From contig JANQFZ010000027.1 of assembly GCA_028277605.1 (NCBI GenBank), positions 235 through 64,234 of the forward strand: 64,000 nucleotides of DNA, in the 5' to 3' direction. Positions 1 through 14,241 of this stretch are shown one piece after another; position 1 is the first letter of the stretch; every line of letters begins with the position of its first letter. Position numbers and translations under genes: made by a program. The notes under the pieces are model-generated. The model worked only from the letters and a program-made list of their open reading frames with translations, was not told where the DNA came from and searched no databases. This stretch comes from Vallitaleaceae bacterium. GTDB lineage: Bacteria; Bacillota; Clostridia; Lachnospirales; Vallitaleaceae.

Positions 1-343
1 ACTTCTGATGGTTCAGCTATACATCACTGCATAGGTTGTTATTTCAAATTTCATTTCCACAACTTATCCATCAGACCTCCCCAGGTAAGAACGTAATCTT
101 TCATCCCATATATCTGCCACATTTACTGCAATAACTTTCGGGTGATACGGACTTTGTTTTGTTATGCAAACTCATCCAACTATTACAGCCTTATATGTGA
201 TTCGTGTTCCTCAGACCGGAATTTTGCCTCCAGCTTCCTTCAGATTCCACCTCACGATGGACACCCTTGCTCTTGGCTAACACCTATATCACCTTCGGTG
301 TTCGGGACTTTCACCCTATAGATTACGCCCATGCTGGGCGCAC
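1..343 (-). mobile_element. Group II intron, 5' portion (domain I onward), class C (IIC)-like; continues beyond the left window edge
   Basis: The reverse complement from 343 reads GTGCGCCCAGCATGGGCG..TATAGGGTGAAAGTCCCGAAC..GGAATCTGAAGGAAGC..TAACAAAACAAAGTCC..TTACCTGGGGAGGTCTGATGG. This is a GUGYG 5' end plus domain-I motifs that, from memory, closely resemble the Oceanobacillus iheyensis IIC intron. The segment is GC-richer than its flanks and has no long ORF. Confidence 0.8.
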
Positions 344-347
344 ATAA

Positions 348-383
348 AAGAAGTACAGTCATGCAATTCAACTGTACTTCTTA
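348..383 (-). terminator. Rho-independent terminator of the sugar ABC operon; also the probable intron homing motif
   Basis: Perfect 12-bp stem AAGAAGTACAGT/ACTGTACTTCTT with an 11-nt loop, followed on the minus strand by TTTTAT. It lies 25 nt after the permease stop codon. Confidence 0.7.
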
Positions 384-407: not shown

Positions 408-1283
408 TTAGCCTTTAACCGCTCCTGATACACCTTCTACATAATATCTCTGTGTAAATAAAAATACAATAGCAATAGGAATGGAAATAATCACACATCC
501 CGCATAAAACTGAGTATAATGATATTCAATAAATTCTGGTTCTAACATACTCCACAACCCTATAGCAACGGTATAGTACGCCCTATCTTGCCCTAAAATA
601 ACTTTTGCAAAAATATAATCAACCCAAGGTCCCATAAATGATGTTAAAAGGGTTAGAACAATAATAGGCTTAGATAAAGGAATACTAATTTTGGTGAAAA
701 CATCCCATTTGGTTGCTCCATCAATATAAGCAGCTTCATCAACCGACTTTGGTATAGTATCAAAGAAGCCTTTTGCAATATAAAATAGCAGTGCTGATCC
801 CGCCGAATAAACCATCACCAGGGCTACCAATTTCAGTGTTCCCACTTCTAATAATCCAAAACCCTTTAATATATAATAAACAGCAATCATTGCCATGAAT
901 CCAGGAAACATTCCTAGTATCATTGCGATATTCAAAAGCTTTTTACGCATCTTAAACCTAAGTCTAGACATAACATAGGCAACACATAATACAAAAAATG
1001 CTGATAATAAGCAAGTGCAAATAGCTACTGCTAATGTATTTTGAAACCATTTTGTAAAAATCAAACTACCTGTTTGCGAAAATAATTCTTTATAATTATT
1101 TAGTGTATACCCTTTTGGAAAGATATAGCTTTTATAGGTACCACCTTCTTCACGAAAAGAAGTCAATAAAACAAAGAAAATTGGTAAAATCCATATAAAT
1201 CCAAGAATAGATAAAGATATATGGGATAGAGAATTTGTAATAAATTGTCTTGTCTTAAAAACTTTAGCTGTTTTCTTCTTCAT
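408..1283 (-). CDS. Carbohydrate ABC transporter permease (MalG/CUT1 type)
   Basis: 291-aa multi-TM ORF with an EAA-type loop (IPKSVDEAAYIDGATKW). It lies 3 nt downstream of the partner permease. Confidence 0.85.
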   Translation of the reverse strand: MKKKTAKVFKTRQFITNSLSHISLSILGFIWILPIFFVLLTSFREEGGTYKSYIFPKGYTLNNYKELFSQTGSLIFTKWFQNTLAVAICTCLLSAFFVLCVAYVMSRLRFKMRKKLLNIAMILGMFPGFMAMIAVYYILKGFGLLEVGTLKLVALVMVYSAGSALLFYIAKGFFDTIPKSVDEAAYIDGATKWDVFTKISIPLSKPIIVLTLLTSFMGPWVDYIFAKVILGQDRAYYTVAIGLWSMLEPEFIEYHYTQFYAGCVIISIPIAIVFLFTQRYYVEGVSGAVKG

Positions 1284-2760: not shown

Positions 2761-4053
2761 TTACTCTTCAACTTTTAATGTTGCAACAAATGTATCCATC
2801 TTTTCTTGGACATTATCTTTAGTTAAATCTCCAGTTCTTATCTCAGTTGCAACACCAGCGACATTAGCCCAATATCTTGAATTAAACTCTACAGATGTAG
2901 GCTGCATGACTGAAGCTGTATTAGCTTCTTCTACTATAACAGAAGCTAATGCATTACTCTGAACAACTTCTGATTCTCCTGCTTTTTTATTAGTAGGAAC
3001 TTGTGCTGTATCTATGAAACGCTGACGCTGCATTTCTTCTCCACCAATATAAGCTGCAAAAGCAACTGCTACAGCAGGATAAGTAGCCTGTGAGTTAACC
3101 CCGATAGCTTTAGAGCCATAGAACCCTTTTAGCTGATAATCATTTCCGTCAGGGTTAAAAGTAGGAATTATAGCCATCCCTAAGTTGTCCCCTAATTCTT
3201 TCTTATATAGTTCGTAATTCCAAGAACCATCAAACCAAGCACCAATCCTATGTTCACCAGCTAATTCAGATATAGATACATCGTCTTTGTAAGCACATTT
3301 AGGATTATTAATTAAATCGATTAGATAATTAGTTACAGCTATCCCTTTTTCACTATTCCAATTGCAGCCAGCCGCAAAATCTGTTTGACTTTCTCCATAA
3401 ATCGTTAACCCTGCACCATAATACCAAGAACCTAGCATCCATCCACCAGCTGAATCAAAACAGTAATTGTAGACATTATCCGCTGTTTCTTTTGCCATGA
3501 TACTCTCTATAGATTTAACATCATCTTCTGTTAAAAGCGTCTTATCATAGTACATAAAGAATGTATTATGAGTAAATGGTATAGCATAAATTGCATCATC
3601 AACCGTTACTGTTTTAACTACCGCATCTGCCATAGTAGTTTTAACCATTTCAGCTGTTGAGCCACCTAATTTAGCAATAGATCCAGCTTTAACAAGCTCT
3701 GATAATTGGTCATTAGCAAAGAAAAAAACATCTCCTGCCGCTGTAATATCCTTAAGAATTTCATCCTTTGCTTTATCTTCACCTTGTGCTTCCACAGTAA
3801 AGTCTATATCCCATTCAGGATGTAATGCTTGGAAAGATTGAATCATAGAATCTATTGAACCTGTTTGTATAGCACGCTCTGGTGCCCAGATTTTTAGTGT
3901 AACTGCTTCTGGTTGATTATTGTCAGTCTCTGAATTATTATCAACTGTATTTTCTCCTCCACTGGTGTTTTGTGTGTTGTCAGAGTTTCCACATCCAATA
4001 ATTGAGAACATTAATGTAGCAACCATAAGTAATGATAACAATTTCTTTTTCAT
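2761..4053 (-). CDS. Extracellular sugar-binding lipoprotein of the ABC transporter (MalE/MdxE-like)
   Basis: 430 aa with a lipoprotein signal ending IIGC. It is the first gene of an SBP-permease-permease operon downstream of a LacI gene. Confidence 0.8.
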   Translation of the reverse strand: MKKKLLSLLMVATLMFSIIGCGNSDNTQNTSGGENTVDNNSETDNNQPEAVTLKIWAPERAIQTGSIDSMIQSFQALHPEWDIDFTVEAQGEDKAKDEILKDITAAGDVFFFANDQLSELVKAGSIAKLGGSTAEMVKTTMADAVVKTVTVDDAIYAIPFTHNTFFMYYDKTLLTEDDVKSIESIMAKETADNVYNYCFDSAGGWMLGSWYYGAGLTIYGESQTDFAAGCNWNSEKGIAVTNYLIDLINNPKCAYKDDVSISELAGEHRIGAWFDGSWNYELYKKELGDNLGMAIIPTFNPDGNDYQLKGFYGSKAIGVNSQATYPAVAVAFAAYIGGEEMQRQRFIDTAQVPTNKKAGESEVVQSNALASVIVEEANTASVMQPTSVEFNSRYWANVAGVATEIRTGDLTKDNVQEKMDTFVATLKVEE

Positions 4054-13519: not shown

Positions 13520-13600
13520 TGCGGGTGAAGGGAGTCGAACCCCCACGCCAAAGGCGCTAGATCCTAAGTCTAGTGCGTCTGCCAATTCCGCCACACCCGC
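13520..13600 (-). tRNA. tRNA-Leu (anticodon UAG)
   Basis: Reverse complement GCGGGTGTGGCGGAATTGGCAGAC..GACTTAGGATC.. with a long variable arm, a GGTTCGACTCC T-arm and acceptor pairing. No encoded CCA. Confidence 0.9.
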
Positions 13601-13688
13601 TTATTCAATTAGTAAGTCATTGACCTTGTTTCTTCATTATAATGTATAATTAGATTCATAGTCAATTATCAGCTTCTTATGAAGCTTA

Positions 13689-13762
13689 TGAGCCACCCGG
13701 GACTCGAACCCGGGACACCTGGATTAAAAGTCCAGTGCTCTAGCCGACTGAGCTAGTGGCCC
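13689..13762 (-). tRNA. tRNA-Lys (anticodon UUU)
   Basis: Reverse complement GGGCCACTAGCTCAGTCGGCTAGAGC..ACTTTTAATCC..GGTTCGAGTCC, cloverleaf consistent. Confidence 0.9.
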
Positions 13763-13768
13763 ATGTAA

Positions 13769-13840
13769 CTGGGTAGGTAGGATTCGAACCTACGCATGCA
13801 GGAGTCAAAGTCCTGTGCCTTACCGCTTGGCGACTACCCA
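13769..13840 (-). tRNA. tRNA-Gln (anticodon UUG)
   Basis: Reverse complement TGGGTAGTCGCCAAGCGGTAAGGC..GACTTTGACTC..GGTTCGAATCC. Confidence 0.9.
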
Positions 13841-13845
13841 TTAAG

Positions 13846-13920
13846 GGTGGATAGTGGGATTCGAACCCACGGCCTCAAGAGCCACAATCTTGCACTCTAA
13901 CCAACTGAGCTATACCCACC
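13846..13920 (-). tRNA. tRNA-His (anticodon GUG)
   Basis: Reverse complement GGTGGGTATAGCTCAGTTGGTTAGAG..GATTGTGGCTC..GGTTCGAATCC. Has the extra 5' G(-1) typical of tRNA-His. Confidence 0.9.
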
Positions 13921-14012
13921 ATAATTACTATTAGTATTAAGCGCCGCGAGTATAAATTATACATACATTAACACATATTGTCAATAGTAAAATAAGTAAA
14001 ATTAAATCAAAG

Positions 14013-14086
14013 CGTGCCTACAGGGACTCGAACCCCGGACACGTGGCTTAGAAGGCCACTGCTCTATCCTGCTGAGCTACAGGCAC
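14013..14086 (-). tRNA. tRNA-Arg (anticodon UCU)
   Basis: Reverse complement GTGCCTGTAGCTCAGCAGGATAGAGC..GCCTTCTAAGC..GGTTCGAGTCC. Confidence 0.9.
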
Positions 14087-14092
14087 ATACAA

Positions 14093-14163
14093 AGCGGGTG
14101 ATGGGAATCGAACCCACGTATCCAGCTTGGAAGGCTGGTGTTCTACCATTGAACTACACCCGC
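14093..14163 (-). tRNA. tRNA-Gly (anticodon UCC)
   Basis: Reverse complement GCGGGTGTAGTTCAATGGTAGAAC..GCCTTCCAAGC..GGTTCGATTCC. Confidence 0.9.
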
Positions 14164-14166
14164 AAG

Positions 14167-14241
14167 TCGGGGTGACAGGATTCGAACCTGCGACTTCTTG
14201 AACCCAAATCAAGCGCTCTAGCCAAGCTGAGCCACACCCCG
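14167..14241 (-). tRNA. tRNA-Pro (anticodon UGG)
   Basis: Reverse complement CGGGGTGTGGCTCAGCTTGGCTAGAGC..GATTTGGGTTC..GGTTCGAATCC. Confidence 0.9.

Follow-up and report, generated by a model that had tools for sequence, protein, structure and literature searches.

The window, a 64,000-nt stretch of DNA from a Vallitaleaceae draft genome (C59:235 to 64234, in an assembly of 86 contigs and 3.34 Mb), begins on its minus strand with what can be identified, with high confidence, as the 5′ part of a selfish class C group II intron retroelement (positions 1 to 343) that lies in sense orientation 4 nt past an operon terminator hairpin and belongs to a family with at least 11 members in the genome, divided between subfamilies A and B. 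The element is a group II ribozyme, with the domain I to IV structure and the 5′ GUGYG sequence of this group. Rfam covariance models gave two group II matches (RF02001 and RF01998; Table 1), and the second, which is cut at the window edge, is complete at 76.8 bits once 234 further bases of the contig are added. The initial annotation had quoted four IIC domain I motifs in this segment and described it as richer in GC; all four motifs were found, and the GC content is 43.7%, versus 33.3% in the flank and in the genome. The intron start had also been placed correctly at 343, 4 nt past the hairpin, with GTGCG at 343 to 339.

The intron follows the last gene of a sugar ABC transporter operon, a permease gene that stops at 408 on the minus strand as first annotated (TAA at 410 to 408), and a second permease gene and a solute-binding protein gene lie upstream in the same direction. 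Twenty-five nucleotides separate the stop codon from the first hairpin arm, AAGAAGTACAGT (382 to 371), which is fully complementary over 12 bp to the second arm, ACTGTACTTCTT (359 to 348). The perfect 12-bp stem of the initial annotation therefore stands, but its span, given as 383 to 348, was off by one. Similarly, the letters TTTTAT reported after the hairpin are present, but the first two T's are the end of the stem, and the unpaired spacer is TTAT only (347 to 344), directly after which the intron 5′ end, GTGCGCCCAGCATGGGCG, begins at 343.

The folding energy of the hairpin (−15.7 kcal/mol by RNAfold) is reached by 0.3% of random 45-mers of this genome. A consensus terminator scan of the window did not flag the hairpin at 382 to 348 because its loop is longer than 8 nt and its T run is broken by the intron. 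This hairpin is the structured part of the DNA target of the intron and stands in place of IBS2. The DNA target had been considered defined by this arrangement, which is true of its 5′ half (the hairpin and the IBS1 sequence TTAT) but not of the remainder, as this copy has its 3′ exon on a different contig. The main value of the finding is for annotation, as the position of the intron marks the real terminator of the sugar ABC transporter operon.

No other introns were found in the rest of the 64-kb window. A 13-bp hairpin at 2709 to 2737, which separates the solute-binding protein gene from that of the first permease, may serve as an attenuator within the operon or as an RNA stability element, and seven tRNA genes are clustered at 13520 to 14241 on the minus strand.

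TABLE 1 Coordinates of the intron, its insertion site and the nested introns of contig C38 (window positions unless the contig is named)
Feature	Position	Strand	Basis or detail
Intron positions 1-343: 5′ GUGCG, domain I, domain II, J2/3 linker	1..343	−	Sequence and Rfam
RF02001 (group-II-D1D4-3), domain Ic-Id, full-length model match	90..261	−	152.1 bits, E=3.5e-33
RF01998, start of domain II/III module, cut at window edge	1..38	−	Rfam match
AGGAA-bearing bulge AUCUGAAGGAA, 11 nt, IIC-specific ε′ region	235..245	−	Unpaired in Rfam structure line
EBS1 AUAA, intron positions 179-182, domain Id terminal loop UGC-AUAA-C	162..165	−	Covariation; E. rectale positional homologue
EBS3, A221 in GUA(A)AUG (base in parentheses), pairs with first 3′-exon base	123..123	−	Covariation; homologue of E. 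rectale A231
IBS1 TTAT, final 4 nt of 5′ exon	344..347	−	Pairs with EBS1 AUAA
Operon terminator-type hairpin, perfect 12-bp stem, 11-nt loop	348..382	−	Arms 382-371 and 359-348
Sugar ABC transporter permease, 291 aa, BPD_transp_1, last operon gene	408..1283	−	ORF; TAA at 410-408
Second permease, upstream, same direction	1286-2677	−	Same sugar ABC transporter operon
Solute-binding protein, upstream, same direction	2761-4053	−	Same sugar ABC transporter operon
C38 outer intron	C38: D1D4-5, 7354-7156; RT N-terminal ORF, 6656-5775; ORF remainder and GIIM, 3864-2974; domain V, 2960-2876	−	
C38 inner intron, complete, inside outer ORF	C38: D1D4-2, 5742-5627; 414-aa IEP, 5260-4016; domain V, 4014-3939	−	

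BLAST and motif searches of the whole assembly located 11 intact 5′ junctions in the draft genome. Six identical junctions are of the A type (C59, C9, C74, C28, C67, and C19), each after ...TTTTAT, and five are of the B type (GTTTGCCC...; GTTTGCCCAGCATGGGCG...), each after ...TTA (C39, C18, C10, C5, and C3). Subfamily B is 76% identical to subfamily A over 96 nt. In addition, nine identical 3′ junctions, ending in ...CCUACUCGAU/...CCUCCUACUCGAU and followed by T, were found on C18, C23, C32, C36, C51, C52, C60, C77, and C85. All 5′ and 3′ junctions are located at contig ends, and multicopy IIC introns explain the break points of at least 20 contig ends in the draft genome. The C59 5′ junction could be matched to no partner among the nine 3′ junction contigs. 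Because its ends are identical at at least 11 sites, the intron family was judged to have probably been active recently in this genome. The five subfamily B junctions begin with GUUUG rather than the GUGYG consensus; the Sedimentibacter relative L040 also starts with GUUUG, and L046 starts with GUUCG, the ε′ bulge sequence being the same.

Class C introns insert behind intrinsic terminators (or attC), in sense orientation and outside genes (PMC1702495, PMC4424553), and target placement in this genome matches this pattern. At ten of the 11 sites, the 5′ flank contains a hairpin within 45 nt (−11 to −20.5 kcal/mol), followed by a T run; none of these ten energies lies above the 2nd percentile of 3,000 random 45-mers of this genome (mean, −4.2). 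The exception is C74, whose flank (−3.6 kcal/mol) is without a strong hairpin within 45 nt. The nearest upstream ORF (≥90 aa) is on the intron strand at every one of the 11 sites and ends 38 to 126 nt ahead of the insertion point at nine of them. Placement after a hairpin and T run is also seen in ~55 related loci. The initial annotation had claimed homing of class C introns behind a terminator stem-loop and had pointed to the possibility of further copies behind terminators elsewhere in the genome; with strong hairpins and T runs at 10 of 11 junctions, all in sense orientation, both are borne out.

Contig C59 continues for 234 nt to the left of the window and contains the intron up to position 577, including domain III, the base of domain IV, and the start of the gene for the intron-encoded protein (IEP). 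This gene has a Shine-Dalgarno sequence (AGGAGG), a TTG start, and 54 open codons, which are 87% identical to the N terminus of the 469-aa IEP of L036, a Tara Oceans scaffold of 1,915 nt that is essentially one whole intron with a few flanking bases. The RT/maturase ORF that was to be looked for by leftward extension is represented by its first 54 codons, just outside the window. The assembly lacks intron positions ~579 to 1819, a stretch of ~1.2 kb that is essentially the RT gene. Searches of the genome with PF00078, PF08388, and RF00029 and by tblastn and blastn with a full-length relative recovered no introns other than unrelated ones on C38 and C68; a scan of JGI metagenomes for the intron interior with an exact 43-mer found nothing; and a search of the protein collection found relatives but not the IEP of this genome.

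The shared 3′ end, present on nine 3′ junction contigs that are not physically linked to the window copy, folds with a z score of −6.4. Domains V and VI were identified there through folding and covariation because RF00029 does not detect them, giving no match on domain V/VI of this lineage even at E values of up to 0.1. The domain V triad on these contigs is CGC with a central G·U wobble; the bulge measures 2 nt, the distal stem 3 bp, and the loop 4 nt. In domain VI, an A is bulged out 7 nt before the 3′ end. Among 27 relatives, the CGC triad is invariant and compensatory changes occur in the helices of both domains. The initial reading had been staked on an RT ORF, domain V/VI, and a covariance model match, and the outcome was covariance model matches, the start of the ORF on the same contig, and domain V/VI on nine other contig ends.

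The window copy could be a dead or truncated derivative (3′ truncated, internally deleted, or with a disrupted ORF), given that only 577 nt of it are assembled and that relics exist in this genome, one on C23 (where 20 nt of a 5′ end are joined to an ORF-end/domain V half) and another on C52 (a degenerate 5′ fragment). This is nevertheless unlikely, as the first 87 to 92 nt are identical to those of five other copies and the 577 nt are colinear with full-length relatives, with small scattered gaps and no large deletion. Furthermore, the ORF is open through all 54 assembled codons, and the 3′ junction contigs carry the last ORF codons (...GTA TGT TAA) and an intact domain V/VI. A repeat present 11 times would be expected to lose its ~1.2-kb interior during a k~99 assembly or during binning. 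The window copy is presumably full length and active.

Target recognition was analyzed by aligning domain I and its flanks for about 20, and then 56, related introns. In the terminal loop (UGC-NNNN-C), the four variable bases show covariation with the final four of the 5′ exon. The EBS1/IBS1 pairs include AUAA/UUAU in the window copy and UUAA/UUAA, UGAA/UUCA, CACA/UGUG, AAAA/UUUU, UAAA/UUUA, CAUA/UAUG, UAGA/UCUA, GCAA/UUGC, and others elsewhere. With one copy counted per lineage (37 lineages with 24 distinct EBS1 sequences), 129 of 148 EBS1-IBS1 positions are paired, compared with a mean of 81 and a maximum of 100 when the flanks were shuffled 10,000 times (0 of 10,000 shuffles reached 129). 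EBS3 and IBS3 pair in 34 of the 37 lineages, including an A-to-G change with a matching T-to-C change and pairs of U with A or G. The first base of the 3′ exon is T at all nine 3′ junctions, which are not linked to the window copy, and this T pairs with EBS3 A221. The related loci form a natural series of retargeted EBS1/IBS1 pairs (24 EBS1 variants), and this series agrees with the recognition rules in the structure of the Eubacterium rectale RNP. Another EBS1 candidate, GGAUAAGU at 70 to 61, was rejected, as it is within domain II and shows no covariation with the flanks.

The precision of this pairing also bears on whether the junction in the window is an assembly artefact, in which a chimera at the contig end would have linked part of an intron to the operon. 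The intron does stand at a contig end and is a collapsed repeat, but the site fits the EBS1 rule exactly, and an identical permease-hairpin-TTAT-GTGCGCCC junction is found in two independent Logan assemblies of metagenome runs (SRR20820739 and SRR20820740). Because both assemblies carry the same junction, a chimera is highly improbable.

In class C introns, the ε′ region is an 11-nt bulge with a conserved AGGAA, and domain V has CGC instead of AGC and a distal stem that is 2 bp shorter (PMC1702495). The 11-nt AGGAA bulge is present at 245 to 235 (AUCUGAAGGAA), and the CGC triad and short distal stem of domain V are present on the nine 3′ junction contigs, unlinked to the window copy. In addition, IBS1-EBS1 pairing is of the 3- to 4-bp type (AUAA at 165 to 162 with TTAT at 347 to 344), there is a single EBS3-IBS3 pair, and a stem-loop is found at the IBS2 position in 10 of 11 sites. 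The assignment to class C made in the initial annotation is therefore upheld by the AGGAA bulge, the 4-nt EBS1, EBS3, and the CGC of domain V.

The IEP of Vallitalea guaymasensis contains RVT_1 and GIIM only and matches TIGR04416 at 426 bits. Among solved structures, it scores highest against the GsI-IIC RT (6AR1; 462 bits), followed by the E. rectale IIC maturase at 422 bits (7UIM), and it also matches the Roseburia intestinalis and E. rectale RT domains; scores were 171 bits versus LtrA (IIA) and 133 bits versus a IIB maturase. The IEP relatives (83 to 91% nucleotide identity) have RVT_1 and GIIM but no endonuclease domain and match the solved IIC RTs best, and in this genome only 54 codons are assembled. 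Terminator placement by itself is no proof of class, but membership of this hairpin-seeking group II intron in another class is barely credible in view of the 11-nt AGGAA bulge, the 4-bp EBS1, the CGC triad with a shortened domain V, and endonuclease-less IEP relatives that match solved IIC RTs ~3 times better than IIA or IIB proteins.

IEPs of this lineage have a conserved N-terminal extension of ~50 aa (MKDTKxYVESRQLHKEGYS...SLTSDRKQND) ahead of RT0. It is encoded at C59:2-163, just left of the window, is present in proteins P0001 to P0120, and overlaps the domain IVa region; it is missing from the GsI-IIC RT and the E. rectale maturase.

A tentative explanation for the two subfamilies is that A and B differ by a one-base register shift in target reading, enabling stacking at one terminator, and that their 3′ parts are shared or exchanged; this is possible rather than probable. 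Subfamily A has EBS1 AUAA and inserts after ...TTAT, whereas B has a predicted EBS1 of UAAA and would insert after ...TTTA. If this is true, a terminator filled by A (..TTTTA/T/GTGCG) would offer B a fresh site one base upstream, resulting in stacked introns. The motif ...CUCGAU-T-GUGCG..., which C23 shares with four or more unrelated genomes (L038, L044, L047, and L086), would be the footprint of such one-base-shifted stacking. The right end of C23 (L119) carries a fresh IIC 3′ end, a T, and an intron relic, in that order; in the relic, 20 nt of an A-type 5′ end are fused to ~55 nt of the ORF end and the 5′ half of domain V. This suggests that a terminator already filled was used again, with insertion one base upstream, by an element reading IBS1 in a register displaced by one base, which is the prediction for B. 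Sharing, or exchange, of 3′ parts between A and B is also suggested because no more than six of the nine assembled 3′ junctions, all identical, can be from A copies.

Head-to-tail stacking is recurrent in this lineage. In L061, L038, L044, L047, and L086, the 5′ end or a fragment of another intron comes after an intron 3′ end, either immediately or with a single T in between. A different arrangement occurs in V. guaymasensis (L033, 3292 to 3339), where one palindromic hairpin (CTGTAATCT..AGATTACAG) has two diverging IIC introns, one per strand. Between each intron and the shared hairpin is a separate spacer, the end of which is a 4-nt IBS1.

Other intron remains were found outside the window. 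The degenerate 5′ fragment of C52 (GTATGCCTAGGATGGGCAT) is behind a hairpin on the minus strand, at position 67058 of the reverse-complemented contig (L118), and C68 contains a decayed intron 3′ fragment (3390 to 3742; L117), consisting of a GIIM region with a TAG stop and a weak domain V match (37.6 bits). The minus strand of C38 (2876 to 7354; L116) contains a nested pair of non-IIC group II introns (Table 1).

The mechanism proposed for the intron takes all of its biochemistry by inference from homology to B.h.I1 and the E. rectale IIC RNP. The intron would be transcribed by read-through from the upstream sugar ABC transporter operon, and its predicted RT/maturase of ~469 aa, with no endonuclease domain, would aid lariat splicing and remain bound to the intron RNA. 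The resulting RNP would locate a single-stranded DNA hairpin followed by a T-rich sequence, with EBS1 (AUAA) pairing with TTAT and EBS3 (A) pairing with the next T. It would then reverse splice into the DNA and be copied from a replication fork primer; priming of cDNA from the replication fork is proposed because the IEP is predicted to be without an endonuclease. The predicted ligated exons would be ...CTTCTTTTAT/T....

The findings add a multicopy IIC family in Vallitaleaceae and leave knowledge of class C introns unchanged. B.h.I1 of Bacillus halodurans is the prototype self-splicing IIC intron (Toor et al. 2006, PMC1702495; Robart et al. 2007, cited in PMC4424553). As described there, B.h.I1 shares with the present intron insertion a few nucleotides past an intrinsic terminator stem-loop, an IBS1-EBS1 pairing of 3 to 4 bp, EBS3 as in IIB introns, the 11-nt AGGAA ε′ bulge, a CGC-containing domain V whose distal stem is shorter by 2 bp, and an endonuclease-less IEP (here, the IEPs of relatives). 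The same description gives B.h.I1 no IBS2, and here a stem-loop stands at the IBS2 position. Unlike B.h.I1, the intron has a Lachnospirales (Vallitaleaceae) host, an IEP with the ~50-aa N-terminal extension, and at least 11 copies in two subfamilies.

The E. rectale IIC intron-maturase RNP (PDB 7UIM/7UIN; Chung et al. 2022, PMC10190682) provides a structural counterpart, in which A184 to G187 and A231 pair with DNA just past the stem-loop (PMC10190682). EBS1 is a 4-nt sequence in the domain Id terminal loop in both introns (184 to 187 in E. rectale and 179 to 182 here), and EBS3 is a single A in the coordination loop that pairs with T (A231 and A221, respectively). The E. rectale RNP targets a DNA stem-loop with a spacer, as is predicted here from the sequence, and the E. 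rectale maturase is homologous to the IEP of the closest full-length relative (422 bits). The two differ in EBS1, which is AUAA here (target TTAT) but AAAG in E. rectale (target CTTT), and in the N-terminal IEP extension, found here only. The GsI-IIC RT of Geobacillus stearothermophilus (PDB 6AR1), for which only the protein was compared, is the best solved match (462 bits over residues 83 to 498) and has the same RT-thumb-DBD architecture without an endonuclease as the relative's IEP, with 428 aa versus 469 aa.

Among natural relatives, L036, which encodes a 469-aa IEP, shows 91% identity to the 577 assembled nt and 93% identity to the 3′ end. The V. guaymasensis introns (L032 and L033), from a complete genome of the same GTDB family (Lachnospirales, Vallitaleaceae), are 83% identical and full length at 1.9 kb, and the intron of a Sedimentibacter MAG (L040) is 97% identical to the first 96 nt of subfamily B. 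These full-length relatives (L032, L033, L036, and L040) are all ~1.9 kb, encode 469-aa IEPs, and lie behind hairpins, but they differ from the window copy in their EBS1/IBS1 pairs (UUAA, UAAA, and others) and in their hosts.
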